Source of the DNA: Candidatus Methylomirabilota bacterium | GTDB lineage: Bacteria > Methylomirabilota > Methylomirabilia > Rokubacteriales > CSP1-6 | Direction: 5' to 3' | Assembly (NCBI GenBank): GCA_035254745.1 | Contig: DATFAJ010000051.1 | Coordinates: 1 to 31,130 of the forward strand | Length of the DNA stretch: 31,130 nt | Shown: one piece after another, positions 4,699 through 18,335 of the stretch | Layout: every line of letters starts with the position of its first letter | Position numbering within the stretch: the stretch's first letter is position 1 | Notes under the pieces: generated by a model | Databases searched by the model: none | Seen by the model: only the letters and a program-made list of their open reading frames with translations | What the model was told of the DNA's origin: nothing | Program-made: the position numbers and the translations under genes

Positions 4699-5274
4699 CT
4701 ACAGGAACACGCTGAGGTTCTTGTCGAGCAGGACGTTGGCGTCGAGCACGATCGTGCGGCGGGCGATCTTCCACTCGCCGTTCACCCGGCGCAGCACATC
4801 CTCGCGGCAGCCCGACAGGAGCTGGTGGTCCGTCTCGAGGTGCGAGCGGTAGACCAGGAACGCGGTCCGGGCCTGCACTTCCCCCCGGGCGAGGGGCGTC
4901 ACCTCGAGGTTGCCGACCAGGTGACGGGTGCGCGACGGGGGATCCTCGGCCCAGGCCATGCCGGTGTCGAGCCGGGCCACCCGCATCTCCAGGTAGCGCT
5001 TGTCCTCCTCGAGGATGGCCAGGTCGCCGAGCGGCGTCAGCTCGCGATGCGCCTCCCGGCGGGGCACGTTCTTGCGGCGGGGCATGAAGTAGAGGACGTC
5101 GTCGGTGAAGAGGTCGAGCCACTCGGTGAGCTTGCGCTCGTCGAGGAGCCAGGCCTCGCGGATGTAGAACGGCATGAGCTCGAGCCAGAGGGCCTGCGGC
5201 GGCGAGAGCGTCGGGGGCCGGCCGGCAGGCCGCGCCGCGGGGCGAGCCCGGCGGGGCGTGCGCTTCTTCTTCAC
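4699..5274 (-). CDS. Aromatic ring-hydroxylating dioxygenase beta (small) subunit, 191 aa
   Basis: FYIREAWLLDER..EWLDLF, Y.MP, WAEDPPSRTRHLVGN, REDVLRR..GEWKIARRTIVLDANVLLDKNLSVFL. GTG at 5274, 14 nt after the alpha stop. The start could lie further downstream. Confidence 0.93.
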   Translation of the reverse strand: MKKKRTPRRARPAARPAGRPPTLSPPQALWLELMPFYIREAWLLDERKLTEWLDLFTDDVLYFMPRRKNVPRREAHRELTPLGDLAILEEDKRYLEMRVARLDTGMAWAEDPPSRTRHLVGNLEVTPLARGEVQARTAFLVYRSHLETDHQLLSGCREDVLRRVNGEWKIARRTIVLDANVLLDKNLSVFL

Positions 5275-5288
5275 CGCGTCGCGCCCCG

Positions 5289-6626
5289 CTAGCCCCGCAT
5301 CGTCGCGGTGCCGTCGAAGCGGGCCTTGATCGGATCCAGCGGGATGTCGGCCCAGCTCTCCGCGTTCATGAACTCTTCCCAGCGCTGGTAGAAGAGACGC
5401 TGGTTGTTCTCCGAGATGTACCGCTCGGAGACCAGGCCGGGGTAGTCCGGATGGGGCCCCGCGTGCCCCAGGCCCATCGACAGGTCCTGGGGGTAGCGGC
5501 GCCCGTGGCGGCTCGCGCTCGCCGCCGTCACCTGGCGCCAGTTGTCGACGTCGTCCTGCTCGAACATGCCGGCGGCGCCGTTGTTGGCCTGGCTCCCGAC
5601 GCGGACCACGCGCTTGATGGCCTCGGGGGCGTCCCGGTCCACCAGCACGAAGTGCCAGAACTCGGTCTGCAGCGGGCCGCGGGGCAGGGCCAGGCGGAGG
5701 CCGAGGATGCCGTTCGGGAAGATGCTGTGGTTGCCGAGCTGCACCCGCCGCGCCCGGAGCTTGCCGAGGCGCCGCTCGACCTCGGGCATCGTCGCGTCGT
5801 GGTAGTCCTGGAACAGCTGGAAGGTCTCGCTCGACACGCCGTGCACGTAGCGGGGGACGTTGTCGTCCGCGTCGCGGAAGGTGATCGAGTGGCCGTTGAC
5901 GAAGGCGTGCTTGTTGGGGCTCTCGAACTGGTCCTTGTGCGAGAGCCGCGGGCGGCCGAGGTACTTGCTCTGGACGCGGGCGCTCGAGAGATGGCTGGTG
6001 GGCACGTGGTAGTTGTCCGAGCAGTTGTCCACCATGACCTTCCAGTTCACCGGCTCGAGCCACTTCATCGGGCCCAGGGCCTGCATGCCGCCGTCGCGCC
6101 GGTTGAACACGGTGTCGAGGTACCAGCGCGCGTCGCCCAGGTAGGCCTCGAGGCCGGGGGCGTCCTTGGCCCAGGTGGCGAAGACGATCCCGGCGTAGGT
6201 CTCCACCCGGGCCTCGATCAGGCCGAGCGAGTCGCGGTCGAGCGCGTCGTAGTAGGCCTCCGACTTGCCCGGGACGTGATCCAGCGCGCCGTCGTTGCGG
6301 TAGGTCCAGCCGTGGTAGGTGCACATGAACCGGTTGGCGTTGCCGTCGTCGCAGCGCACCACCCGGTTGCCCCGGTGCCGGCACATGTTGAGCAGGGCGT
6401 GCAGCCGGCCCCCGCCGTCCCGGGTCAGGATGACCGGGTCCTCGCCCATGTAGGTGTGGAAGAAGTCGTCGGGCGCGGGCAGCAGGCTCTCGTGCCCGAT
6501 CATCAGCCAGGCGCGCCCGAAGATCTTCTCCATCTCGTCGTCGTAGACCGAGCGGTCGCTGAAGATGCGGCGGTCGATCTTGCCGGTGGCGGGGTCGATG
6601 ACGGCGTACTTCTGGCTGGCGCCCAT
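5289..6626 (-). CDS. Rieske aromatic ring-hydroxylating dioxygenase alpha (large) subunit, 445 aa
   Basis: Rieske motif CRHRG-x15-CTYHGW, mononuclear Fe motif NWKVMVDNCSDNYHVPTSH, C-terminal EQDDVDNW, final SENNQRLFYQRW. Strong RBS AAGGAGGAG before ATG 6626. Confidence 0.95.
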   Translation of the reverse strand: MGASQKYAVIDPATGKIDRRIFSDRSVYDDEMEKIFGRAWLMIGHESLLPAPDDFFHTYMGEDPVILTRDGGGRLHALLNMCRHRGNRVVRCDDGNANRFMCTYHGWTYRNDGALDHVPGKSEAYYDALDRDSLGLIEARVETYAGIVFATWAKDAPGLEAYLGDARWYLDTVFNRRDGGMQALGPMKWLEPVNWKVMVDNCSDNYHVPTSHLSSARVQSKYLGRPRLSHKDQFESPNKHAFVNGHSITFRDADDNVPRYVHGVSSETFQLFQDYHDATMPEVERRLGKLRARRVQLGNHSIFPNGILGLRLALPRGPLQTEFWHFVLVDRDAPEAIKRVVRVGSQANNGAAGMFEQDDVDNWRQVTAASASRHGRRYPQDLSMGLGHAGPHPDYPGLVSERYISENNQRLFYQRWEEFMNAESWADIPLDPIKARFDGTATMRG

Positions 6627-7328: not shown

Positions 7329-9623
7329 GTGAGCTTCCGCGTCATCGGCAAGGGCACCCCGAAGCGCGACGGGGCCGAGAAGGTCACCGGCCACACCCAG
7401 TTCCTGCACGACCTCACGCTGCCGCGCCTCGCCCACGGCGCCATCCTCCGCACCCGCTACCCGCACGCGCGCGTGCGACGCATCGACACCCGCGCGGCCG
7501 AGGCGCTGCCCGGAGTGCTCGCGGTGATCACCGCCGACCGCGTGGAGCAGCATCCGTTCGGCTTCGCCAAGGACCACCGGGCGCTCAAGGGCGGCGCGGC
7601 CGACGGAGGCAAGGTGCGCTGCATCCGCGACGAGATCGCGGCGGTGGCCGCGCTCACCGAGGAGATCGCGCAGGAGGCGGTGCGGCTCATCCGGGTGGAC
7701 TACGAGGAGCTGCCCGCGGTGTTCGACCCCGCCGCCGCCCTCCGGCCCGGCGCCCCGCTCGTCCACGAGGAGCGGGGCAGCAACCTGGTCAACCTGCGCT
7801 ACCAGTTCGCGCACGGCGACGTGGAGTCGGCCTTCGCGCGCGCCGACGTGGTGGTCGAGGGCGAGTACCGGCTCAACTACGTCACCACCGCGTGCATGGG
7901 CACGATGGCAGCGGTCGCGTCCTGGGGCGCGCCGGAGAGCCCCGACGCCTCGCTGACCATGTGGAGCACGACGCAGGTGCCGTTCCTCTACCAGCGCGAC
8001 CTGGCCGAGGCCCTCGGCATCACCGGCGACCGGGTGCGGGTGATCCAGCCGCCGGTGGGGGGCAACTTCGGCCGCGGGCTCGACCTCTACCCGATCGACA
8101 TCATCGCCGCGCTGCTGGCCCGCCGCGCGGGCCGGCCGGTGAAGATCGCCTTCGAGCGCATCGAGGAGTTCATCGCGAGCCCGACCCGCGAGCCCTGCGT
8201 GATCCACCTCCGGACCGCGGCGGACCGCGACGGCCGCCTGCTCGCCCGCGACGCGCGGGTGGTGATCGACAACGGCGCCTACGTCTCGTGGGGCTCGACC
8301 ACGCCCTACGTGATGCTGTCCACCACCGCCGGGCTCTACCGCGTCCCCGCGGTGCGCTTCGACACGAGCATCGTCTACACCAACAATCCATACTCGGGTT
8401 CCATGCGTGGCTACGGCAACCTCGAGAGCACGTTCGCGATCGAGGCCCAGATGGACGACCTGGCCGAGCGCCTGGGGCTCGACCGGGTCGAGATCCGCCG
8501 GCGCAACGCGACCCGGTCGGGCGACGTCAACCCGCAGGGCAACGTCATCACCTCCTGCGCCATGACCGAGTGCCTCGACGCGGTCGAGCGCGAGATGAGC
8601 GGGGCCGCCCGCGAGGCCCCGCGGCCCGGCTGGCGGCGCGGGGTCGGCTACGCGGCCATGTTCCACGTGGGCGGGGGCGCGCGGGTCTACCGCTCGGACG
8701 GCTGCGGCGCGATCCTGAAGCTCGACGACTTCGGCCGGGTCTCGCTGCTCACCGGGGCCAGCGAGATCGGCCAGGGCTCCGAGACCGTGCTGGCCATGAT
8801 CGTGGCCGAGGAGCTCGGCGTGCCCCTCGGGCGAATCGACGTGGTCAACAGCGACACCACGATCAAGCCCTGGGACGTGGGCGTGCACGCGAGCCGCACC
8901 ACGTTCATCGCCGGCAACGCGGCGCTGATGGCCGCGCGCGGGCTCAAGGCCAAGCTGCTCGCCCTGGCCGCTGGGGTGATGGACGAGCGCCCCGACGACC
9001 TCGAGCTGGCCGACGGCCGCGTCCGGGTCAAGGGGCATCCAGAGCGCGGCATGGAGTACGACCGCGTGGTGCGGGCCGGCCACTTCCGCGAGGGCGGGCG
9101 CACCCTGGTGGCGGAGGCCTTCTACGACCCGCCCAACGAGATGCTGTCGAAGGACCTGCGCGGCAACGTCTCGGCCACGTACGGCTTCGCGGCCCAGGCC
9201 GCGCTGGTGGAGGTGAGCCTGGCCACCGGCCAGGTGCGGGTGCTGAAGGTGGCCTCGGCCCACGACGTGGGCCGCGCGCTCAACCCGCTGGCCGCCGAGG
9301 GGCAGATCCACGGCGGCATCCACATGGGGCTTGGCTACGCGCTCTCGGAGGAGCTGCGGATCGCGGAGGGGCGCGTGCTGAACCCGCAGTTCATGGAGTA
9401 CGCGCTGCTCACCGCGGCCGACATGCCCGAGATCGTGATCCACCTGATCGAGACGGTGGACGAGGCGGGGCCCTTCGGGGCCAAGGGCCTGGGCGAGTCC
9501 GGCGTGATCCCGGTGGCCGCCGCGGTGGCCAACGCGGTGAAGGACGCGGTGGGCGTGCGGCTCACCGAGCTGCCGATGACGCCCGAGCGCGTGTTCCGCG
9601 CCCTCGCGGCGCGACCGGCGTGA
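7329..9623 (+). CDS. Xanthine dehydrogenase-family molybdopterin-binding (large) subunit, 764 aa
   Basis: EKVTG, LRTRYPHARV, TTQVPF, GGNFG, SMRGYG, EIGQGS, HASRTT, NPLAAEGQIHGG, GPFGAKGLGES (catalytic Glu). Confidence 0.95.
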   Translation: MSFRVIGKGTPKRDGAEKVTGHTQFLHDLTLPRLAHGAILRTRYPHARVRRIDTRAAEALPGVLAVITADRVEQHPFGFAKDHRALKGGAADGGKVRCIRDEIAAVAALTEEIAQEAVRLIRVDYEELPAVFDPAAALRPGAPLVHEERGSNLVNLRYQFAHGDVESAFARADVVVEGEYRLNYVTTACMGTMAAVASWGAPESPDASLTMWSTTQVPFLYQRDLAEALGITGDRVRVIQPPVGGNFGRGLDLYPIDIIAALLARRAGRPVKIAFERIEEFIASPTREPCVIHLRTAADRDGRLLARDARVVIDNGAYVSWGSTTPYVMLSTTAGLYRVPAVRFDTSIVYTNNPYSGSMRGYGNLESTFAIEAQMDDLAERLGLDRVEIRRRNATRSGDVNPQGNVITSCAMTECLDAVEREMSGAAREAPRPGWRRGVGYAAMFHVGGGARVYRSDGCGAILKLDDFGRVSLLTGASEIGQGSETVLAMIVAEELGVPLGRIDVVNSDTTIKPWDVGVHASRTTFIAGNAALMAARGLKAKLLALAAGVMDERPDDLELADGRVRVKGHPERGMEYDRVVRAGHFREGGRTLVAEAFYDPPNEMLSKDLRGNVSATYGFAAQAALVEVSLATGQVRVLKVASAHDVGRALNPLAAEGQIHGGIHMGLGYALSEELRIAEGRVLNPQFMEYALLTAADMPEIVIHLIETVDEAGPFGAKGLGESGVIPVAAAVANAVKDAVGVRLTELPMTPERVFRALAARPA

Positions 9624-10900
9624 TGGACGCGCCGATGTGGGACGCCCCGGCCGAGTCCCGGCCGCGCGAGGTGCTGGACCGGCAGACGGTCGAGGGGATG
9701 CGCCGGACGCTCGGCCGCGCCCTGACCAACGCGGCCTGGCGGCGGCGCCTCGGGGACGCGACGCCCGGTGACATCCGCACGCCCGCCGACTGGGCGCGGC
9801 TGCCGTTCCTCACCAAGGACGACCTGCGCGATGCCTATCCCTTCGGTCTGACCTGCGCCGAGCCCGAGGCCGTCCTGCGCGTCCACATGTCCTCGGGCAC
9901 CACCGGCAACCCGGTGCTGAACCCCTACACCCGGGCCGACGTGGAGCAGTGGGCTGGGGTGATGGCCCGCTGCTACGTGGCCGCGGGCGTGGGGGCGCGG
10001 GACGTGGTCCAGATCACGCCGTCGTTCGGCCTGTTCACCGGTGGCTTCGGCTTCCACTACGGCGCGGAGCGGATCGGGGCGATGGTGGTGCCGGCCGGCG
10101 CGGGCCGGACGTCGCTGCAGCTGCAGCTCATGCGCGATCTGGGCGCCACCGTGCTGGCCGGCATCTCGACCTACCCGCTGCGCATCCTCGAGGTCGCGCG
10201 CGAGGAGCGGTTCGACCTGGGCTCGCTCCGCCTCCGGGTGGCCATCCTCGGCTCCGAGATGTGGACCGACGACCTGCGCCGGCTCATCGAGCGCGAGCTC
10301 GGCCTCACCACGTTCGACATCATCGGGATGACCGAGACCGGCGGCCCCGGTCTCGGCATCGACTGCGCGGCCCGCGCCGGCATCCACGTCTGGGAGGACC
10401 ACTACTTCTGCGAGGTGGTGGACCCGGCGACGGGCGCCCCGCGGCCCGACGGCGAGCCGGGCGAGCTGGTGGTGAGCACGCTCACGCGCGAGGGGCTCCC
10501 GCTGATCCGCTACCGCACCCACGATCTCACCCGGGTGCTGAGCCGCGCGCCCTGCGCCTGCGGTCGCACCCACCTGCGGCTGGACCGCCTGCAGGGGCGC
10601 ACCGACGACATGGTGATCTTCCGCGGGGTGAACTTCTATCCGCGCCAGATCGAAGCGCTGCTGCTCAAGCAGCCCGACGCGGGCCACGAGTACCAGATCG
10701 TGCTCGACCGCGCGCCCGGCGGGAGCGACCGGCTGGCGCTGCTCGTCGAGGCCCGCGAGGGCTTCGCGGAGACCGGCCTGCCGCGGCTCCGCAGCGAGCT
10801 GCGGCAGTTCCTGAACCTGAGCCCCGAGATCACCCTCCTGAAGGAAGGCGAGCTGCCTCGGGCGCCGGGGAAGGCGGTGCGGGTGGTGGACCGGCGGTAG
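9623..10900 (+). CDS. paaK: Phenylacetate-CoA ligase-like AMP-forming acyl/aryl-CoA ligase, 425 aa
   Basis: LPFLTKDDLRDAYPFG, P-loop HMSSGTTGNP, FGLFTGGFGFHYGAERIGA, GMTETGGPG, HVWEDHY, LIRYRTHD, GRTDDM, GVNFYP.QIE, GKAVRVVDRR. ATG overlaps the upstream TGA (TGATG). The substrate is not proven. Confidence 0.85.
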   Translation: MDAPMWDAPAESRPREVLDRQTVEGMRRTLGRALTNAAWRRRLGDATPGDIRTPADWARLPFLTKDDLRDAYPFGLTCAEPEAVLRVHMSSGTTGNPVLNPYTRADVEQWAGVMARCYVAAGVGARDVVQITPSFGLFTGGFGFHYGAERIGAMVVPAGAGRTSLQLQLMRDLGATVLAGISTYPLRILEVAREERFDLGSLRLRVAILGSEMWTDDLRRLIERELGLTTFDIIGMTETGGPGLGIDCAARAGIHVWEDHYFCEVVDPATGAPRPDGEPGELVVSTLTREGLPLIRYRTHDLTRVLSRAPCACGRTHLRLDRLQGRTDDMVIFRGVNFYPRQIEALLLKQPDAGHEYQIVLDRAPGGSDRLALLVEAREGFAETGLPRLRSELRQFLNLSPEITLLKEGELPRAPGKAVRVVDRR

Positions 10901-10902
10901 CG

Positions 10903-11301
10903 TCAGTAGCCCATGCAGCGGTTGAATTCCTCGTCATACGCGTACCGCGGTCCGAGAGACAGTCCGCGCATCCGGCGCCGGCACTCCTCGCGCCGGGCAT
11001 CGTAGTCCGGCACTGGCTGCACCACCGGTCGCATCCCCAGCGCCTCCTCCTCCCGCTCGGGCCCGCGGAACGCGCCGGGCTGGGGCGCGGCGAGCTGGGT
11101 GCGGCGCCAGCCCCGCGTCATCATGCAGTAGCGGTAGAGCGTCGTCGGCTCGACGGGAGACTTCATGGCCCGGACCTCGGTCAGGCAGGCCTGCGAGTCG
11201 GCGTCGAAGGCGGAGATGTCTCGTCCCGGCTGTGTCCAGTAGTAGCGGCCGCAGGCCACCGTGGCGAGGAGCACGAGGACGAGGAAGAGCCCGCGCTTCA
11301 T
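10903..11301 (-). CDS. Hypothetical predicted lipoprotein with two Cys-pair repeats, 132 aa
   Basis: MKR + hydrophobic core + LATVA-C17 lipobox-like site. ATG overlaps the upstream TGA (ATGA, 11298-11301). Confidence 0.7.
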   Translation of the reverse strand: MKRGLFLVLVLLATVACGRYYWTQPGRDISAFDADSQACLTEVRAMKSPVEPTTLYRYCMMTRGWRRTQLAAPQPGAFRGPEREEEALGMRPVVQPVPDYDARREECRRRMRGLSLGPRYAYDEEFNRCMGY

Positions 11302-13592
11302 GGGTGCGGCGGCAGCAGGTCCAGCAGCCGCGAGGGTCCGAGCGGCATGCGCGTCACGTGACCGCCCCGGAGCCCGACCGCGTCCTCGATCGCCGAGGCC
11401 AGCACCGCGGGCACCGGCAGCGTGCCCGACTCGCCCACGCCCTTGAGCCCGAGCGGGTTGAGCGGCGAGAGCGTCTCGAGGTGGTCGATCGCCATGGTCG
11501 GCACGTCGGTCGCGGTCGGCAGGAGATAGTCCATGTAGCTGCCGGCCAGGAGCTGGCCCGCCTCGTCGTAGGCGACCTCCTCGAGCAGCGCGCTGCCGAT
11601 GCCGAGCGCCACCGCGCCCTGGAGCTGGCCCTCGACTATCAACGGGTTGATCAAGCGGCCCGAGTCGTGGCTGATCCAGTAGCCCAGGATGCGCACCGCG
11701 GCCGAGAGGGGATCGAGCTCGACCAGCGCCACGTGGGCGCCGGAGGAGTAGGTCATGTCGGCGGGCTGGAAGACGCGCGTGCTCTCGAGGCCGGGCTCGA
11801 CGCCGAGCGCGGCCGTCGCGGCGCCGGCCAGGCGCGCCAGCTCGGCGAGGGTCACGCGGCGCTCCGGGCGCCGCCGGTCGGCGAAGGTCGGGCCGGCCTG
11901 CTCGAGGTCGCTCTCGTCGATCCCGAGGGCGCGCGCGGCCAGGGCCCGCGCCTTCACGCGCACGTCGCGCGCGGCGAGGGCCATCGCGTTGCCGCCGACC
12001 ACCGCGGCGCGGCTCGCGAACGAGCCCGTGCCGTGCTCGACGCCCGCGGTGTCGCCGGTGACGACGGTCACGTCCGCGGGGGTGACGCCGAGCTCGTCGG
12101 CCGCGACCTGGGCCAGCGTCGTCTCGAGCCCCTGGCCCTGGGTGGACACGCCGCTCCACGCGGAGATGCGCCCGGCCGCGTCGACCCGCACGCGCGCGCT
12201 CTCGAAGGGGCCGACGCCGGTCAGCTCCACGTAGCAGGCGACGCCCACGCCGAGCAGGCGGCCCGCGGCCCGCGCGGCGGCGGCCTCGGCCGCGCGCGCG
12301 TCGTACCGCGCGCTCTCGAGCGCCCGGCGCAGCACCGAGGGCAGGTCGCCGCTGTCCAGCACCACGTGGCCGCTGCCGCGGTAGTTCGGCAGCCCGGTGT
12401 CCCACGGCATGTCCTCGGCGCGGACCAGGTTGGCCAGGCGGACCTGGGCGCGATCGCGGCCGGTCTCGCGCGCCACCAGGTCCAGCACCCGCTCGATCAC
12501 GAAGACGGCCTGCGGCTGCCCGGCGCCGCGATACGGGGTGACCGGCACGCGGTGGGTGTAGCGGCTCTCGAAGCTCGACTCGACCGCGGGGATGCGGTAC
12601 GGCCCGGTCAGCATCGACGCGGTGAGCAGCGGCACCACCAGGCCGCGCGGCGTGTAGGCCCCGGTGTCGTGGACGAAGCGGTCGCGCAGGGCCAGGAGGC
12701 GGCCCGCGTCGTCGAAGCCGACCGTCACGTCGTGCTCCTGCTCGCGCTCCTGGGTTGCGGCCAGCATGTGCTCGAGGCGGTCCTCGATCCAGCGCACCGG
12801 TCGTGCCAGGCGGCGAGCGAGGAACGGGATCAGGACGTCCTCGGGATAGACGATGAGCTTGGCGCCGAAGCCGCCGCCCACGTCGGGGGCAATCACGCGC
12901 ACCTGGTGCGGGGCCAGGTCGAGCAGGTCGGCGACGAACTGGCGGATCTGGTGCGGCACCTGGGAGGAGGCCCACACCGTGAGCTGGTCGAGCGCCGGGT
13001 TCCAGTCCGCCACGAGCCCGCGCGTCTCCATCGGCTGGCCTCCGCCGCGCCCGATGCGCAGCCGAACTGAAATCACTCGGGGGGCCGCGCGGAGCGCGGC
13101 CGCGGTGTCGCCGCGGGTGAGCGTCACGCGCCCGGCCAGGTTGTCGGGGATGTCGTCGTGGACCGCGGGTGCGCCCGGGGTGAGCGTCTGGGCCGACGGC
13201 AGCACCTCGTAGTCGACCTCGAGCAGGTCGCGCGCGTCCTCCGCCGCGTAGCGGCTGTCGGCCACCACCGCGGCGACGGCCTCCCCCACGAAGCGCACGC
13301 GGTCGCCCGCGAGCGGGGCGAAGTTGTGCCCGCGCAGCTCGGGGTGCGGCGGCACCATGGGGAACGAGCGTGCGGCGCCACCGAGCTCGGCGAAGGTCAC
13401 CACGTCCACGACGCCGGGGTGCGCGCGCGCCCGGTCCGCGTCCACGCGGCGGATGCGCGCGTGGGCGTGCGGGCTCCGCAGCAGCACGACGTGGAGCATG
13501 CCGGGCAGCGCGAGATCGCCCACGTAGCGCCCGCGCCCGGTGAGCAGGCGCGGGTCCTCCTTGCGGAGATGCCGGTCGCCGACGAACTTCAC
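11298..13592 (-). CDS. Xanthine dehydrogenase/CoxL-family molybdopterin-binding large subunit (form II-like), 764 aa
   Basis: RKEDPRLLTGRGRYV, LRSPHAHARI, SSQVPH, GGGFGAK, active-site loop PYRGAGQ, QGQG, FASRAA, GRLINP..VEGQLQG, LKGVGESG. GTG overlaps the small-subunit stop. Confidence 0.95.
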   Translation of the reverse strand: MKFVGDRHLRKEDPRLLTGRGRYVGDLALPGMLHVVLLRSPHAHARIRRVDADRARAHPGVVDVVTFAELGGAARSFPMVPPHPELRGHNFAPLAGDRVRFVGEAVAAVVADSRYAAEDARDLLEVDYEVLPSAQTLTPGAPAVHDDIPDNLAGRVTLTRGDTAAALRAAPRVISVRLRIGRGGGQPMETRGLVADWNPALDQLTVWASSQVPHQIRQFVADLLDLAPHQVRVIAPDVGGGFGAKLIVYPEDVLIPFLARRLARPVRWIEDRLEHMLAATQEREQEHDVTVGFDDAGRLLALRDRFVHDTGAYTPRGLVVPLLTASMLTGPYRIPAVESSFESRYTHRVPVTPYRGAGQPQAVFVIERVLDLVARETGRDRAQVRLANLVRAEDMPWDTGLPNYRGSGHVVLDSGDLPSVLRRALESARYDARAAEAAAARAAGRLLGVGVACYVELTGVGPFESARVRVDAAGRISAWSGVSTQGQGLETTLAQVAADELGVTPADVTVVTGDTAGVEHGTGSFASRAAVVGGNAMALAARDVRVKARALAARALGIDESDLEQAGPTFADRRRPERRVTLAELARLAGAATAALGVEPGLESTRVFQPADMTYSSGAHVALVELDPLSAAVRILGYWISHDSGRLINPLIVEGQLQGAVALGIGSALLEEVAYDEAGQLLAGSYMDYLLPTATDVPTMAIDHLETLSPLNPLGLKGVGESGTLPVPAVLASAIEDAVGLRGGHVTRMPLGPSRLLDLLPPHP

Positions 13593-14098
13593 GCCGACGG
13601 GGCCGCCGCGCGCCCGGCCGCCGCCGCGTCCAGCGCGGCCTGCACGATGTGCTGGTAACCCGTGCACCGGCAGAGGTTGCCGGAGAGCGCCTCGCGGATC
13701 TCGGTCTCCGACGGAGACGGGTGCAGCCGCAGGTAGGCGACCAGCGTCATCAGGATGCCGGGCGTGCAGAAGCCGCACTGGAGCGCGTGGCGGCTCCGGA
13801 AGGCCTCCTGCAGCGGGTGCAGGCCGGGGCCGGCGCCGGCGAGGCCCTCGACGGTGTCCACCCGGCAGCCGTCCACCTGCACCGCGAAGACGAGGCAGGA
13901 GCGCGTGGGCTCGCCGTCCACCAGGACGGTGCACGCTCCGCACGCGCCGTGCTCGCAGCCGAGGTGGGTGCCGGTGAGGCCCCACTCCTCGCGGAGCAGG
14001 TCGGCCAGGAGCAGGCGGGGGATCACGCGGGCCCGGCGCTCGGCGCCGTTCACGATCGCGGTGACGTCGTGCCGGGCGGAGCCGGGCCCGGCCGTCAC
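13589..14098 (-). CDS. CoxS/XdhC-type 2x[2Fe-2S] small subunit, 169 aa
   Basis: GCEHGACGACTV..SC and QCGFCTPG...GNLCRCTGY. GTG overlaps the FAD-subunit stop (GTGA). Confidence 0.96.
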   Translation of the reverse strand: MTAGPGSARHDVTAIVNGAERRARVIPRLLLADLLREEWGLTGTHLGCEHGACGACTVLVDGEPTRSCLVFAVQVDGCRVDTVEGLAGAGPGLHPLQEAFRSRHALQCGFCTPGILMTLVAYLRLHPSPSETEIREALSGNLCRCTGYQHIVQAALDAAAAGRAAAPSA

Positions 14099-14967
14099 GC
14101 CGCCTCCGCCCGCGCGGCCGCCTGCTGGAGCGCGCGCGCGGCCAGCCCCGCCGCGACGCGCCGCCGGTACTCCGCCGTCGCGTGCAGGTCGGCGCGCGCG
14201 TCGATCTCGGCGGCGCCGGCCCGCCCCGCCTCGGCGAGGCGCGCCGCCGACGGCCGCTCGCCGATCAGCGCGGCGGCGGCGCGCACCGGGTGCGGGCCGT
14301 CGCCCGCGCCGAAGATCACGAGCCGGGCGTGCCGGCAGACGCCGCCCGCGTCGAGCGCGAGCGCCGCGCACGCCCCCACCAGCGCGAAGTCCCCGTGCCG
14401 GCGCGCCACCTCGGCGAAGCCGTGCCCCGCGCGCACGGCCGGCATTCCCGGCACCTCGATCCCGGCGAGGAGCTCGTCCGGCTCGAGCGCGGTCGACAGG
14501 AGGCCGAGGAAGAAGTCCCGGGCGGAGCAGGCCCGCTGCGCCCGGGCGCTCCGCAGGTGGAACACCGCGTCGAGCGCGATCATGCAGGCGGGCAGCTCGG
14601 CGGCGGGATCGGCGTGGGCGAGGCTGCCCCCGATGGTGCCGCGCGCCCGCGTCTGGAGGTGCCCGATGAGCGGGGCGGCCTCGGCGAGCAGCGGGGCGGC
14701 GGCGGCGACGCGCCCGTCGCGCTCGAGGGCGTGCTGGCGGACGAGCGCGCCCAGGTGGAGCCGCCCCGCGTCCGCCCGCACCGTGCCGAGCGCGGCCACC
14801 CGGTTCAGGTCGATCACCACCGCGGGACGCACCAGGCGCATGTTCATCATCGGCACCAGGCTCTGGCCTCCGGCCAGGAGCTTGGCCTCGTCGCCGTGGC
14901 GCCCGAGGAGGTCGAGGGCCTCCTCCACCGTCCGCGGCGCGAAGTACTCGAATGGAGCGGGCCGCAC
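14095..14967 (-). CDS. CoxM-type FAD-binding medium subunit, 290 aa
   Basis: PFEYFAPRTVEEA, KLLAGGQSLVP, RGTIGGSLAHADPAAELP, ARRHGDFA, DLHATAEYRR. Confidence 0.95.
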   Translation of the reverse strand: MRPAPFEYFAPRTVEEALDLLGRHGDEAKLLAGGQSLVPMMNMRLVRPAVVIDLNRVAALGTVRADAGRLHLGALVRQHALERDGRVAAAAPLLAEAAPLIGHLQTRARGTIGGSLAHADPAAELPACMIALDAVFHLRSARAQRACSARDFFLGLLSTALEPDELLAGIEVPGMPAVRAGHGFAEVARRHGDFALVGACAALALDAGGVCRHARLVIFGAGDGPHPVRAAAALIGERPSAARLAEAGRAGAAEIDARADLHATAEYRRRVAAGLAARALQQAAARAEAA

Positions 14968-14977
14968 GCGTCTTCGG

Positions 14978-15883
14978 CTAGACCTTCCCGAGCTTCGGGT
15001 GGTCGAACATCGGCAGCTTCACGCCCCACGGCGCCATCCGCGCGCGGATCTTGGCGATGAACTGGGGCACGATGCGCATCTCGTCCTCGGGGGTGGTGCC
15101 GCCGAGGCCGGCCTCGCAGGCCACGCGGTCGGCGTCGATCTCGATCGGCGTCGCGCTGCCGCCCTCGACGGCCAGCCACAGGTTGCGGTAGCCGTTGAAC
15201 TCCACGCTCTGGATCATCTGGGTCACCGCGCGCTCGATGTTCCGCACCGTCTCCGGCGTGAAGGTGGGCGCCCAGGCGTCCAGGCACTGCCAGCCGAATG
15301 CGATGTGGCGCACCTCGTCGCGCAGGATCAGCTCCATGAGCCGCCGCACCGCGGGGTTCGTGGCCTTGTGCACGGTGGCCTTGAAGGCGTCGATCAGGAT
15401 CTCCTCCGCGGCGCACACCAGGCTCGCGAAGATGCCCTCGAGCGAGGTGTCGGGGTCGAAGGCCATGCGGCGCACCCCGTGGGTGCCGACCGCGGTCACC
15501 GTCGGCGGGTTCTGCGGCTGCGGGAAGTAGCCGCCCAGGCGCTCCGCCATCAGCCAGGACGCCTCGGCGTGGCGCCCTTCCTCCTGCGTGCGCATGGTGA
15601 AGAAGAAGCGCAGGTCCGGCAGCCGATTCTCGAGGCAGAAGCGCAGGAGCAGGGCCGGGCTCTCCGAGATCGCGCCGTACTCGCCCCAGGTCCGGCGGCT
15701 CCAGTGCAGCCGCGCGGCCATGATCTGCGCCTCGGGGTAGCGCTCCGGGTGCAGCTCCTCCCACGGGATATCCGTCTCCGGGTCCCACTCGAGGGTCTTG
15801 GCGCGCTGCCACAGCTCCCACACGTCGGGCATGGCGGGGGCGAGCTCGAGCGGGTAGCGGGTCTCGGCGAGGTAGGCGCTCAT
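14978..15883 (-). CDS. Ferritin-like (four-helix diiron carboxylate) protein with a complete ligand set, 301 aa
   Basis: E68 (WGEY), E102-x-x-H105 (QEEGRH), E160/E161 (AAEE), E190-x-x-H193 (RDEVRH). RBS GGAGG. Confidence 0.8.
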   Translation of the reverse strand: MSAYLAETRYPLELAPAMPDVWELWQRAKTLEWDPETDIPWEELHPERYPEAQIMAARLHWSRRTWGEYGAISESPALLLRFCLENRLPDLRFFFTMRTQEEGRHAEASWLMAERLGGYFPQPQNPPTVTAVGTHGVRRMAFDPDTSLEGIFASLVCAAEEILIDAFKATVHKATNPAVRRLMELILRDEVRHIAFGWQCLDAWAPTFTPETVRNIERAVTQMIQSVEFNGYRNLWLAVEGGSATPIEIDADRVACEAGLGGTTPEDEMRIVPQFIAKIRARMAPWGVKLPMFDHPKLGKV

Positions 15884-15920
15884 GACGGAACCCTCCTGGA
15901 CGCGGCGGTCGGGCGGCGCG

Positions 15921-16862
15921 TCATGCGCGGCCGAGCTCCGGATGGTCGACGGGAGCCAGCGCGACGTCCCACGCGGCGAGACGCTCGCGGACCTGGGCGA
16001 GGGTGGCGCGGACCACCGCCTTCTCCTGCGCGACGGTGGAGGCGCCGAGCCCGTGCTCCGCGGTGAGGGCCTCCGCGGCGAGCAGCGGCTCGCGGGCTCC
16101 CGCGGGCAAGAGCCAGGTGTTGCGGTAGCCGGCGAGGATCACGCGCTCCAGCATATCGCGAACCGCCAGGCCGACGGCGGCGCGTCCGGCGGCGTCGAGG
16201 CGCGGCAGCCGGTCGCCGAGCAGGGTCCACGCGAACAGCACGTGGCGCTGCTTGTCGCCGGCCACGAGCCGCAGGATCTGGCGCGCGGTCTCGTCGCGGC
16301 TGTGCCGGAGATGGCTCAGGCACAGATCGAGGTCGAGCTGATCGTCCAGGCAGCCGAGCGCGGCCACCACCGCCTCCACCGACACGTCGGGGTCGAGGGC
16401 CATCTGGGCGAAGGGCTGGTTGCTCGCGCGCGCGACCGCCTCGGCGGGAGTGGGCTCGTAGCCGCCCAGGTGCCGGGCGAAGAGGAAGCACGCCTCGAGG
16501 TGCTTGGCCTCCTCCGCGGGGCGGAAGGACAGGAAGAGCTTGGCGTCCATGCCGGCCGCTCCGGACTCGAGGCAGAAGCGGATCAGCAGCGCGGTGTTCT
16601 CGCCGAGGCCGGGGTAGGTGCCCCACGCCCGGCGGCTCCACACCAGCCGCGCCGCCTCGCGCACCGCGGGCGGGTACGCCCCGGGGTCGAAGCGGCGCCA
16701 CGCCACGTCGGTCTCGGGATTCCAGCGGAGCCCCTTGGCCTGGTGGTACAGCTCGCGCAGGACCGGGCTCTCGGTCGCGAAGCGCAGCGGGAACCGCCGC
16801 TCCAGGAAGCGCTTCTCCTGCGCCTGGTAGCCCCGCAACAGCCGATCGCTCGTCTCGGACAT
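15921..16862 (-). CDS. Ferritin-like paralog with degenerate diiron ligands, 313 aa
   Basis: Collinear with the downstream protein along its whole length (W.PETD..W, AARL.WSRR.WG, LL.RFCLE, LGGY.P, DPD.S.E, GYRN.WL, GLG, DHP.LG). Ligand positions read T82, E118xxH121, D173/174, K204xxH207. Confidence 0.8.
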   Translation of the reverse strand: MSETSDRLLRGYQAQEKRFLERRFPLRFATESPVLRELYHQAKGLRWNPETDVAWRRFDPGAYPPAVREAARLVWSRRAWGTYPGLGENTALLIRFCLESGAAGMDAKLFLSFRPAEEAKHLEACFLFARHLGGYEPTPAEAVARASNQPFAQMALDPDVSVEAVVAALGCLDDQLDLDLCLSHLRHSRDETARQILRLVAGDKQRHVLFAWTLLGDRLPRLDAAGRAAVGLAVRDMLERVILAGYRNTWLLPAGAREPLLAAEALTAEHGLGASTVAQEKAVVRATLAQVRERLAAWDVALAPVDHPELGRA

Positions 16863-16899
16863 GCCGTCGATGCCTTTCCGCGCCGCTCGCCCCGGCGCG

Positions 16900-16928
16900 A
16901 GGATAGAGGGGACACGGTGACGTGTCAA
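16900..16928 (-). promoter_or_regulatory. Putative sigma70-type promoter for the diiron/Mo-hydroxylase operon
   Basis: Minus strand TTGACA (16928-16923), 17 nt spacer, TATCCT (16905-16900). Near consensus. Confidence 0.72.
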
Positions 16929-16941
16929 ACGGCACCACCCC

Positions 16942-16970
16942 TTGACGCGGCGGCACTTTCGGCAGATTCT
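16942..16970 (+). promoter_or_regulatory. Putative sigma70-type promoter for the hypothetical + rhodanese pair
   Basis: TTGACG (16942-16947), 17 nt spacer, GATTCT (16965-16970). Confidence 0.5.
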
Positions 16971-17025
16971 CGGGCGCGGCTCGCGTGGTCGGCCCACATC
17001 GGAGAACCCGGCGGAGGAGGGGCGG

Positions 17026-17451
17026 ATGGCCTTGAGAATCCTGAGCGGCTTGCTGTTCATCAACGGCGGCCCGAAGGGCGGAACCGCGGTGATCACGTTC
17101 AATCCGTTCGCGCTCGCGACGGCTCCGTCCACCGTGAGCCTCAACAAGGCCCGGATCATCGGGGCCGACGGCGCGTTCAGGCAAAGGCCGGCCTCGATCG
17201 TCGCGGCGCGGCAGTTCGCCATCCTCGACGTGGACGCCACCTACCGGCTCCGCATCAACGACACGGTGACGACGACGTCCATCACCATCTCGTGGGCCGG
17301 GACGGGGCCGAGCTTCCACGAGGAGATTCCGTTCATGGTCGTGGGCGAGGTGCCCGACCCGCAGCCCATCCCGGGGCCGGGCCGACCACCGCGTCGCCCC
17401 CGGAAGGCGCCGAGGAGAAGGGCGGCCCGTGGAAGGAAGTCGCGGCGCTGA
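17026..17451 (+). CDS. Hypothetical beta-rich protein with a Pro linker and Arg/Lys-rich C-terminal tail, 141 aa
   Basis: Strong RBS GGAGGAGG, codon usage like its neighbours, stop 2 nt before the rhodanese ATG. Confidence 0.7.
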   Translation: MALRILSGLLFINGGPKGGTAVITFNPFALATAPSTVSLNKARIIGADGAFRQRPASIVAARQFAILDVDATYRLRINDTVTTTSITISWAGTGPSFHEEIPFMVVGEVPDPQPIPGPGRPPRRPRKAPRRRAARGRKSRR

Positions 17452-17453
17452 CC

Positions 17454-18335
17454 ATGGACCTGCGCGATCCCGACGCTCTGATCTCGACCGAGGGCCTGGC
17501 CGCGCGGCTCGGCCAGCCCGGGCTGCGCGTCTACGACTGCACGACCTATCTCGAGCCGCCCGATCCCGGCTCGGACGATCCCTACAAGGTGGTCGCGGGC
17601 CGGAAGACCTTCGTCGCGGCCCACGTCCCGGGGGCCGACTTCCTCGATCTGCAGGGCGAGCTCTCCGCGCTCGACACGCGGCTCAAGTTCACGATGCCGT
17701 CGGCCGAGCACCTGGCGCGCGCCTTCGGCCGGCACGGGCTCGGCGACGGGGCCCGCGTCGTGCTCTACAGCATCGGCAGCATGATGTGGGCCACGCGGGT
17801 CTGGTGGATGCTCCGCGCGCTCGGCTTCGACGGCGCGGCGGTGCTGGACGGCGGCTTCGACCGGTGGCAGGCCGAGGGCCGGGCGGTCGAGAGCGGCGAG
17901 CCGAAGGGCTATCCGCCCGCGACGTTCACGCCGCGGCCGCGCCCGGGGCGCTTCGTCGACCGGACCGCGGTCAAGGCCGCGATCGGCGACCCGCAAACCG
18001 TCACCGTGAACGCGCTCGGGCCGCAGTTCCACAAGGGGCTCGAGCCGTCACGCTACGGCCGGCCCGGCCGCGTGCCGGGCTCGGTCAACGTGCCGGCGGC
18101 GAGCCTGGTCGATCCGGCGACCAAGTGCTTCGTCTCGCCCGCGGACGCCATGGCCAGGTTCGCCGCGGCCGGCGTCGCGCGGGACCGGCGGGTGATCGCC
18201 TACTGCGGGGGCGGCATCTCCGCGACCATCGACCTGTTCCTGCTGCACCAGCTGGGCTTCGACGACCTCACGCTGTACGACGGCTCGATGGGGGAGTGGG
18301 CGAAGGACCCGAGCCTGCCGATCGAGACCGGGTAG
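17454..18335 (+). CDS. Tandem-domain rhodanese/sulfurtransferase (SseA/MPST-like), 293 aa
   Basis: HVPGA, ATRVWWMLRALG, VLDGGFDRW, GRVPGSVNVP, active-site loop YCGGGISA, LYDGSMGEW. Confidence 0.93.
   Translation: MDLRDPDALISTEGLAARLGQPGLRVYDCTTYLEPPDPGSDDPYKVVAGRKTFVAAHVPGADFLDLQGELSALDTRLKFTMPSAEHLARAFGRHGLGDGARVVLYSIGSMMWATRVWWMLRALGFDGAAVLDGGFDRWQAEGRAVESGEPKGYPPATFTPRPRPGRFVDRTAVKAAIGDPQTVTVNALGPQFHKGLEPSRYGRPGRVPGSVNVPAASLVDPATKCFVSPADAMARFAAAGVARDRRVIAYCGGGISATIDLFLLHQLGFDDLTLYDGSMGEWAKDPSLPIETG

Follow-up and report, generated by a model that had tools for sequence, protein, structure and literature searches.

A gene cluster in which a putative diiron oxygenase and a molybdenum (Mo) hydroxylase are encoded side by side raises the question whether the two enzymes work together and, if so, whether one supplies the other with electrons. 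The cluster lies on contig DATFAJ010000051.1 (assembly GCA_035254745.1) of a Candidatus Methylomirabilota bacterium, of which positions 1 to 31,130 were analysed (the window). Six co-directional minus-strand genes follow one another here (Table 1): ferB and ferA, which code for two ferritin-like paralogues, coxM, coxS and coxL, which code for a CoxMSL-type Mo hydroxylase, and a small open reading frame (ORF). A reading made from the sequence alone (the sequence-only reading) had proposed a redox-coupled system, in which the Mo hydroxylase provides the electrons for an O2-dependent step of the diiron pair, and had considered an aryl-CoA pathway analogous to PaaABCE in view of an adjacent PaaK-like ligase gene. 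Our data support a functional link between FerAB and CoxL that is conserved in Rokubacteria, but neither CoxM and CoxS as the reductase of the pair nor the aryl-CoA connection.

Conservation of the FerAB-CoxL association

A reciprocal test started from CoxL and covered 251 genomes of the phylum, with orthologues at 63-100% identity and a cloud of paralogues at no more than 54%. All 25 orthologues with at least 69% identity and a testable upstream flank are preceded by ferA, either directly or with coxM-coxS in between; these loci span at least 12 genera (the flanks of L093 and L096 were too short, and both were left out). Paralogous CoxL proteins at 63-65% identity, and those of the cloud, have no adjacent ferA. 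At the level of genomes, 36 of the 251 encode FerA, all 29 genomes with a CoxL orthologue lie within those 36, and a CoxL orthologue occurs in none of the 215 ferA-negative genomes. The CoxL orthogroup never occurs without FerAB, whereas FerAB does occur without the CoxL orthogroup.

Seen from the pair, a scan of species-representative genomes that carry it returned 80 loci. Where FerA is 82-86% identical to that of the window, coxL lies directly downstream of ferB-ferA in 20 of the 23 loci with enough downstream sequence, and within 10 kb of these 20 ferB-ferA-coxL loci, which represent about 20 species, there is neither coxM nor coxS. All loci of the group with at least 94% FerA identity carry coxM-coxS-coxL after ferB-ferA; coxM stands between ferA and coxL only in the group with at least 81% CoxM identity, that is genus g1 and g14. 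At least 12 genera of one Rokubacteria family share the order ferB-ferA-(coxM-coxS)-coxL; around the triad, the neighbouring genes differ from locus to locus and are mostly unrelated singletons. An adjacency that outlasts 30% CoxL divergence and a full turnover of the flanks points to a functional link, despite the kinship of the loci and the single origin of the association. That FerAB and CoxL act in the same pathway is, by this comparative evidence, well supported.

The ferA tree shows the clades with coxM-coxS-coxL and with coxL alone as sisters, and does not settle whether coxM and coxS were gained or lost. The triad without them accounts for 21 of 33 Rokubacteria-type rows and is the more widespread arrangement. 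Some contigs that are 91-99% identical are filed under metagenome-assembled genomes (MAGs) of Verrucomicrobiia, Dormiibacterota and Binatia (L035/L036, L007, L008, L022); these are more likely mis-binned Rokubacteria contigs than cases of recent transfer.

Another companion of the pair is a HAAT-type (Liv-like) ABC transporter. It is found just upstream of ferB in several Rokubacteria loci, and the substrate-binding protein (SBP) beside ferBA in L001, L005, L020, L022 and L032 shares 48-54% identity with the SBP of the proteobacterial operon described below, a distance like that of FerA. A TTGACA-N16-18-TAnnnT element just before the first transporter gene in L001 (4338-4366), L020 (4454-4482) and L022 (3943-3971) suggests that transporter, ferBA and coxL may form a single transcription unit there. 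The window strain is without this transporter; in its genome, the closest match to the binding protein reaches 30% identity. In L014 and L018 coxL has been lost, the HAAT transporter retained, and an AMP-ligase lies downstream of the pair; L016 is also without coxL, its downstream gene coding for a transketolase-like E1 protein. L014 is the only locus with a split pair: about 3.7 kb of minus-strand genes separate ferB and ferA (5354-6298 and 10001-10897).

Outside Rokubacteria the pair has a different setting. All 44 proteobacterial-type loci, with FerA about 50% identical, show the order ferA(-ferA')-ferB, and none has CoxM, CoxS or CoxL within 10 kb. Their operon has the layout GntR/UTRA regulator | Peripla_BP_6 SBP-ferA-ferB-LivH-LivM-LivG-LivF-Abhydrolase_3-RidA-(Abhydrolase_3 or amidase), and includes no reductase or ferredoxin. 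Among the carriers are cultured members of Variovorax (sp. JS1663), Achromobacter, Ottowia (O. thiooxydans), Comamonas (C. badia DSM 17552), Paraburkholderia and Azospirillum. In some of these operons two genes of the FerA type precede a single ferB (L037-L039, L041, L043, L044, L048), which suggests that the catalytic subunit was duplicated once more. A conserved divergent protein of about 410 aa in the proteobacterial loci has no Pfam match and no useful match in the Atlas.

The expectation that the pair would be syntenic with coxMSL is therefore borne out in part only: the link between the pair and CoxL is kept in Rokubacteria, and the 44 proteobacterial-type loci are without coxMSL. According to this distribution and the ferA tree, the ancestral module was importer plus FerAB, to which CoxL was added once, in the Rokubacteria clade.

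FerA and FerB as a predicted diiron pair

FerA and FerB share 37% identity. In FerA, the alignment places the metal ligands at E74, E102xxH105, E160/E161 and E190xxH193. A ligand survey of 165 family members from 85 loci found the signature of the ferA clade (E, EE..H, EE, E..H) intact in all 89 of its sequences. FerB of the window retains the first Glu, the ExxH and the last His; the Glu of helix 3 is replaced by Asp/Gln, that of helix 4 by Lys. Throughout the FerB clade the fourth-helix Glu is changed to Lys or Arg in nearly all sequences, from Rokubacteria and Proteobacteria alike, and the third-helix Glu pair to Asp-Gln or Asp-Gly in both phyla. The Lys/Arg-for-Glu change common to both phyla implies that the split into a catalytic and a degenerate form predates that between Rokubacteria and Proteobacteria. 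One intact and one degenerate paralogue, as noted by the sequence-only reading, are thus real and ancient, and the split supports, by inference, an obligate FerA-FerB pair. FerA identity amounts to 80-85% across Rokubacteria genera, and the numerous invariant Arg, Trp and His residues beyond its metal site suggest a specific substrate pocket.

The AlphaFold2 model of FerA (pLDDT 87.8) has its best Foldseek matches in ribonucleotide reductase (RNR) R2 and R2lox (E 3e-5 to 1e-4, TM-score up to 0.65). VIA, an aligner independent of Foldseek, gave Z scores of 19.5-18.2 across an ADO-like protein, R2lox (19.1), R2 (18.6) and MMOH-alpha (18.2), and lower scores for PaaC (3pvr_B, 16.6), BoxB (13.0) and AurF (12.6-13.2). 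The family profile aligns with the N-terminal segment of R2 and with its ExxH helices, and model and alignment together give an R2 fold with an E, ExxH, E, ExxH dimetal site. FerA is accordingly predicted, from model and alignment, to be an R2-like diiron-carboxylate protein of full size, from a family not described so far.

Profile searches give a less distinct picture. FerB has no Pfam or NCBIfam match. FerA of the window scores 20.8 bits against Pfam AurF (PF11583), under the cut-off of 29.6. The score for the RNR small chain (PF00268) is 11.8 bits, with a cut-off of 33.6. AurF is the only Pfam family that matches all 39 FerA homologues scanned, weakly (best E 4.3e-9); DUF455, RNR small chain, rubrerythrin and aldehyde decarbonylase are further weak matches. 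PF05138 (PaaA_PaaC) is absent among the Pfam matches of the 39 homologues at E up to 1. Together with a fold closer to RNR R2 and R2lox than to PaaA or BoxB, this speaks against an analogue of PaaABCE. A PaaA-like aryl-CoA epoxidase was rejected on the same two grounds and because the ligase gene belongs to a convergent operon; the ligase accompanies the pair only in the near-identical relatives L013, L036 and L090.

The molybdenum hydroxylase

The claim of a complete CoxMSL-type enzyme with flavin adenine dinucleotide (FAD), 2x[2Fe-2S] and Mo subunits was confirmed by Pfam and NCBIfam. CoxM matches PF00941 (FAD_binding_5, 5.8e-45) and PF03450 (CO_deh_flav_C, 3e-17), CoxS matches PF01799 (Fer2_2, 1.7e-31) and PF00111 (Fer2, 8e-07), and CoxL matches the hammerhead domain PF01315 (Ald_Xan_dh_C), PF02738 (MoCoBD_1) and PF20256 (MoCoBD_2) with E values of 1e-27 to 1e-75, so that all three subunits have the domains of the xanthine-oxidase/CoxMSL type. 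The active-site loop of CoxL is PYRGAGQ (type-II-like), not AYRCSFR, and a GVGESG motif is present at the C-terminus. A genuine type I CO dehydrogenase is ruled out by this loop, which has no Cu-binding Cys, and by equivalog scores under their cut-offs (819 bits vs 950 for CODH_aero_grp5, NF040766; 517 vs 991 for TIGR02416). The closest solved structures are CoxL 8uem, QorL 1t3q and KdhL 7dqx (E about 1e-146 to 1e-149). Non-type-I coxL genes are abundant in soil, and their substrate is unknown (PMC6784897).

The source genome, an 80% complete MAG of a soil bacterium of the Rokubacteria/Methylomirabilota with one ferAB pair, contains at least 17 coxL paralogues and 10 each of coxS and coxM, hence many orphan large subunits. 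With large subunits outnumbering the other two, partners that act in trans appear to be the rule. Four related triad-type genomes have 8-15 coxS paralogues each, and a search in them for a relocated orthologous coxS gave only paralogues of about 60% identity. Among the nearest outgroup CoxL genes, which are also orphans, that of L119 (G248:C51, 63%) lies beside a GntR/UTRA regulator, an M20 peptidase/amidohydrolase, a cyclic amidohydrolase and SBP_bac_5, and that of L120 (G219:C343, 63-65% group) occurs with DUF6282, a nitroreductase, another coxL and Haem_oxygenas_2 (HDO-like).

Proposed pathway and alternatives

We consider it fairly probable that the genes form an accessory catabolic operon, in which FerAB and then a dedicated Mo hydroxylase oxidise one imported substrate. 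The inheritance of the pair together with the HAAT importer implies that the pair acts on a small molecule taken up by this route. A FerAB heteromer would carry out the first, O2-dependent oxidation, with FerB most likely as the structural partner of FerA, as PaaC is to PaaA or beta to alpha in soluble diiron monooxygenases. The Mo hydroxylase would follow in Rokubacteria with a second, water-dependent hydroxylation, and would fill the place that hydrolases (esterase/amidase) and RidA take in the proteobacterial version. The pair is fixed in Rokubacteria beside one type-II-like CoxL orthogroup, for which the operon also supplies CoxM and CoxS in the genus of the window. To judge from the GntR/UTRA regulators, the amidase and RidA partners and the gene context of the CoxL in L119, the probable substrate is a small N-containing compound, either cyclic or an amide.

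Several points weigh against this pathway. The family is uncharacterised, and databases name all its members 'ferritin-like domain-containing' or 'hypothetical'. In the ferA tree the link to CoxL arises once, in one Rokubacteria clade, so that the species do not represent independent origins, and the many coxL paralogues per Rokubacteria genome (at least 17 here) raise the chance of adjacency. The order of the two oxidations has phyletic asymmetry as its single line of evidence. The single origin, the wealth of coxL paralogues and the independence of the pair from Mo enzymes elsewhere would also suit mere neighbours, with pair and Mo enzyme serving different substrates and the linkage dating from a single ancestral rearrangement. 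Such a coincidence is unlikely, given an adjacency that persists through CoxL divergence and complete flank turnover in at least 12 genera, the strictly nested phyletic pattern, the operon-like or overlapping gaps, and the fact that the pair stays with the transporter where coxL is lost (L014, L018). FerAB might also be no oxygenase at all: the fold class includes rubrerythrins, ferritins and R2lox of unknown function, and the pair could store metal, scavenge O2 or peroxide, or bind a ligand without redox chemistry as an R2lox-like protein, protecting or maturing the neighbouring enzymes. This is very improbable in view of the 300-aa, R2-sized architecture, which is not that of a 4-helix mini-ferritin, the catabolic context of importer/hydrolase operons under a GntR/UTRA regulator, and the substrate pocket suggested by the invariant residues.

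The remaining alternatives concern the path of the electrons. Under redox coupling, electrons from the Mo step would pass via the clusters of CoxS and the FAD of CoxM to the O2 step of FerA, and CoxM and CoxS would be its reductase. Tight packing in the genus of the window (a 10-nt gap and 4-nt overlaps), the strict dependence of the CoxL orthogroup on ferAB and the established two-electron stoichiometry of both enzyme classes all fit, as does the absence of any ferredoxin or NAD(P)H reductase from those genes of the window that were scanned against Pfam. This last observation, which bears out the sequence-only reading, is uninformative: a Rieske dioxygenase requires a reductase, and the Rieske alpha/beta pair of the window likewise has no ferredoxin or reductase among these genes. 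A missing reductase gene thus says little here, since the genome often encodes oxygenases apart from their electron donors. Against coupling stand the roughly 20 Rokubacteria species with ferB-ferA-coxL and no coxM or coxS within 10 kb, the CoxS paralogues of four triad-type genomes, which reach about 60% identity at best, and the 44 proteobacterial-type loci without Mo enzyme or reductase, where FerA is evidently reduced otherwise. Absent from the module in most species and from all 44 proteobacterial-type loci, CoxM and CoxS cannot be the general reductase of the pair, and this part of the earlier proposal is not supported. The electrons of FerA probably come from general cellular reductants; their delivery from the FAD of the Mo enzyme is possible but unsupported, and redox coupling as a whole seems unlikely to us. 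The reverse arrangement, in which FerAB replaces the FeS and FAD subunits as the electron acceptor of an orphan CoxL and the two form a Mo-hydroxylase:diiron oxidase with O2 as the final acceptor, would explain why the triad without coxM and coxS is the more widespread one, why neither gene lies within 10 kb of it, and why the CoxL orthogroup is never found without ferAB. Yet the 8-15 coxS paralogues per triad-type genome could serve in trans, orphan coxL genes are common (17 L vs 10 S in the genome of the window), the operon of the window itself puts coxM and coxS between ferA and coxL, and FerAB functions in Proteobacteria without any CoxL. To our knowledge, moreover, every characterised enzyme of the xanthine oxidase family uses two [2Fe-2S] clusters, and we regard this arrangement as extremely improbable. 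A physical FerAB-CoxL complex that exchanges electrons with the Mo centre, be it via CoxS/CoxM or with FerAB in their place, and that needs no NAD(P)H reductase, is in our estimate decidedly unlikely; if true, such direct Mo-diiron exchange would represent a novel mode of oxygenase operation, independent of NAD(P)H.

Comparison with known systems

The combination of a Mo hydroxylase with an O2-dependent monooxygenase is known from operons for N-heterocycles: quinoline Qor with the Rieske enzyme Oxo, nicotinate NicAB with the flavin enzyme NicC, and nicotine Ndh/Kdh with flavin hydroxylases. The present operon resembles them in encoding both enzyme types together, and QorL and KdhL are among the nearest solved large subunits. 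In contrast to these operons, the place of the flavin or Rieske enzyme is taken here by a predicted R2-like diiron heterodimer, and most relatives have no genes for FeS and FAD subunits next to that of the large subunit. The logic of Mo hydroxylase plus O2-dependent hydroxylase is therefore known; the novelty lies in the family to which the oxygenase belongs and in its constant association with a large subunit that is usually encoded without FeS and FAD genes of its own. Our literature search brought up no publication that deals with a diiron/Mo-hydroxylase operon or with the FerAB family.

Among diiron proteins, PaaA/PaaC likewise combine a ferritin-fold catalytic subunit with a paralogue whose metal site is degenerate, an analogy and not a membership: unlike PaaABCE, FerA has no PF05138 match and a fold that ranks nearer to R2/R2lox, and no PaaB-, PaaD- or PaaE-like genes were found among the window genes scanned. 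R2lox and RNR R2 are the best Foldseek matches and of the same size, but identity is only 11-21%, PF00268 stays far under its threshold and the genomic context is catabolic. In R2 the radical Tyr is expected four residues after the first His; FerA has S109 at this distance from H105. R2 and R2lox are homodimers, whereas FerA is taken to form a heteromer with its degenerate paralogue. AurF/CmlI (PF11583) share the weak match of all 39 homologues and the lack of a dedicated reductase gene, but FerA falls under the Pfam cut-off and has low structural Z scores to them, and they are homodimers from biosynthetic clusters. The likeness to soluble diiron monooxygenases is confined to the fold (the Z score to MMOH-alpha), and the scans found no Phenol_Hydrox, MmoB or reductase genes. 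CoxL, finally, agrees with type II CoxL in that PYRGAGQ resembles AYRGAGR and is without the Cu-binding Cys of AYRCSFR, and in its numerous paralogues; unlike other type II CoxL, this orthogroup has an invariant genomic partner, FerAB.

This partner matters because few oxidoreductases of unassigned function are as abundant in soil genomes as the non-CO type II CoxL proteins, and an invariant FerAB offers a route to a substrate. FerAB itself represents a diiron family that is both widespread and highly conserved, and for which no function has been described. It occurs in cultured, tractable Variovorax, Achromobacter, Comamonas, Ottowia and Azospirillum, and the binding protein of the operon can be screened for its ligand.

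Operon structure and neighbouring genes

Codon-position GC and inspection of ORFs and starts confirmed the six minus-strand genes in a window of 70-76% G+C, with their spacing: 37 nt between ferB and ferA, 10 nt between ferA and coxM, and then three overlaps of 4 nt each, so that coxS shares 4 nt with coxM and 4 nt with coxL. The near-consensus promoter upstream was likewise confirmed; it is the sole promoter-like site in 10500-17600 (7.1 kb), where shuffled sequences give an expectation of 0.1, and it is kept in place solely in the 99% relative L035. Soil metatranscriptome runs contain up to 69% of the sampled words of the operon, a weak sign of transcription.

Table 1. Position of the operon genes, their promoter and neighbouring genes in the window.
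Feature	Position	Strand	Length	Remarks
ferB	15921-16862	-	313 aa	
ferA	14978-15883	-	301 aa	
coxM	14095-14967	-	290 aa	
coxS	13589-14098	-	169 aa	
coxL	11298-13592	-	764 aa	
Small putative lipoprotein ORF	10903-11301	-	132 aa	MKRGLFLVLVLLATVAC...
Sigma-70-like promoter	16928-16900	-		TTGACA-17-TATCCT, ~37 nt 5' of ferB ATG
Second CoxL (orphan)	7329-9623	+	764 aa	34% identical to operon CoxL
PaaK-like ligase	9623-10900	+		start coupled to second CoxL
Rieske ring-hydroxylating dioxygenase alpha + beta	4699-6596	-		Pfam

The sixth gene, counted as part of the operon by the sequence-only reading, is present and its coding status is supported by codon-position GC, but it is not conserved: no homologue of this small 'lipoprotein' ORF occurs in any of the 85 related loci, including relatives with 95-96% identity. 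In two of these, L013 and L090, coxL and the ligase gene follow one another without it, and an Atlas search gave weak 'hypothetical protein' leads only. The ORF appears to be a strain-specific insert at a convergent junction, outside the conserved unit.

Upstream, a 169-aa ORF on the plus strand (16942-17451) diverges from the promoter of the operon and reaches into the beginning of a rhodanese gene (17448-18335). This ORF is without a Pfam match and of doubtful coding status; a counterpart, at 77% identity, occurs only in the near-identical L035. On the other side, ligase and operon converge with 2 nt between their stop codons. The stop codon of the second CoxL gene overlaps the ATG of the ligase gene (TGATG at 9621-9625), which indicates translational coupling, so that the ligase, on which the suggested aryl-CoA link had rested, belongs to a convergent operon with this second CoxL. 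The latter is preceded by a VOC/glyoxalase gene, and the block Rieske alpha/beta-VOC-coxL2-ligase is kept in the 95-96% relatives L013 and L036.

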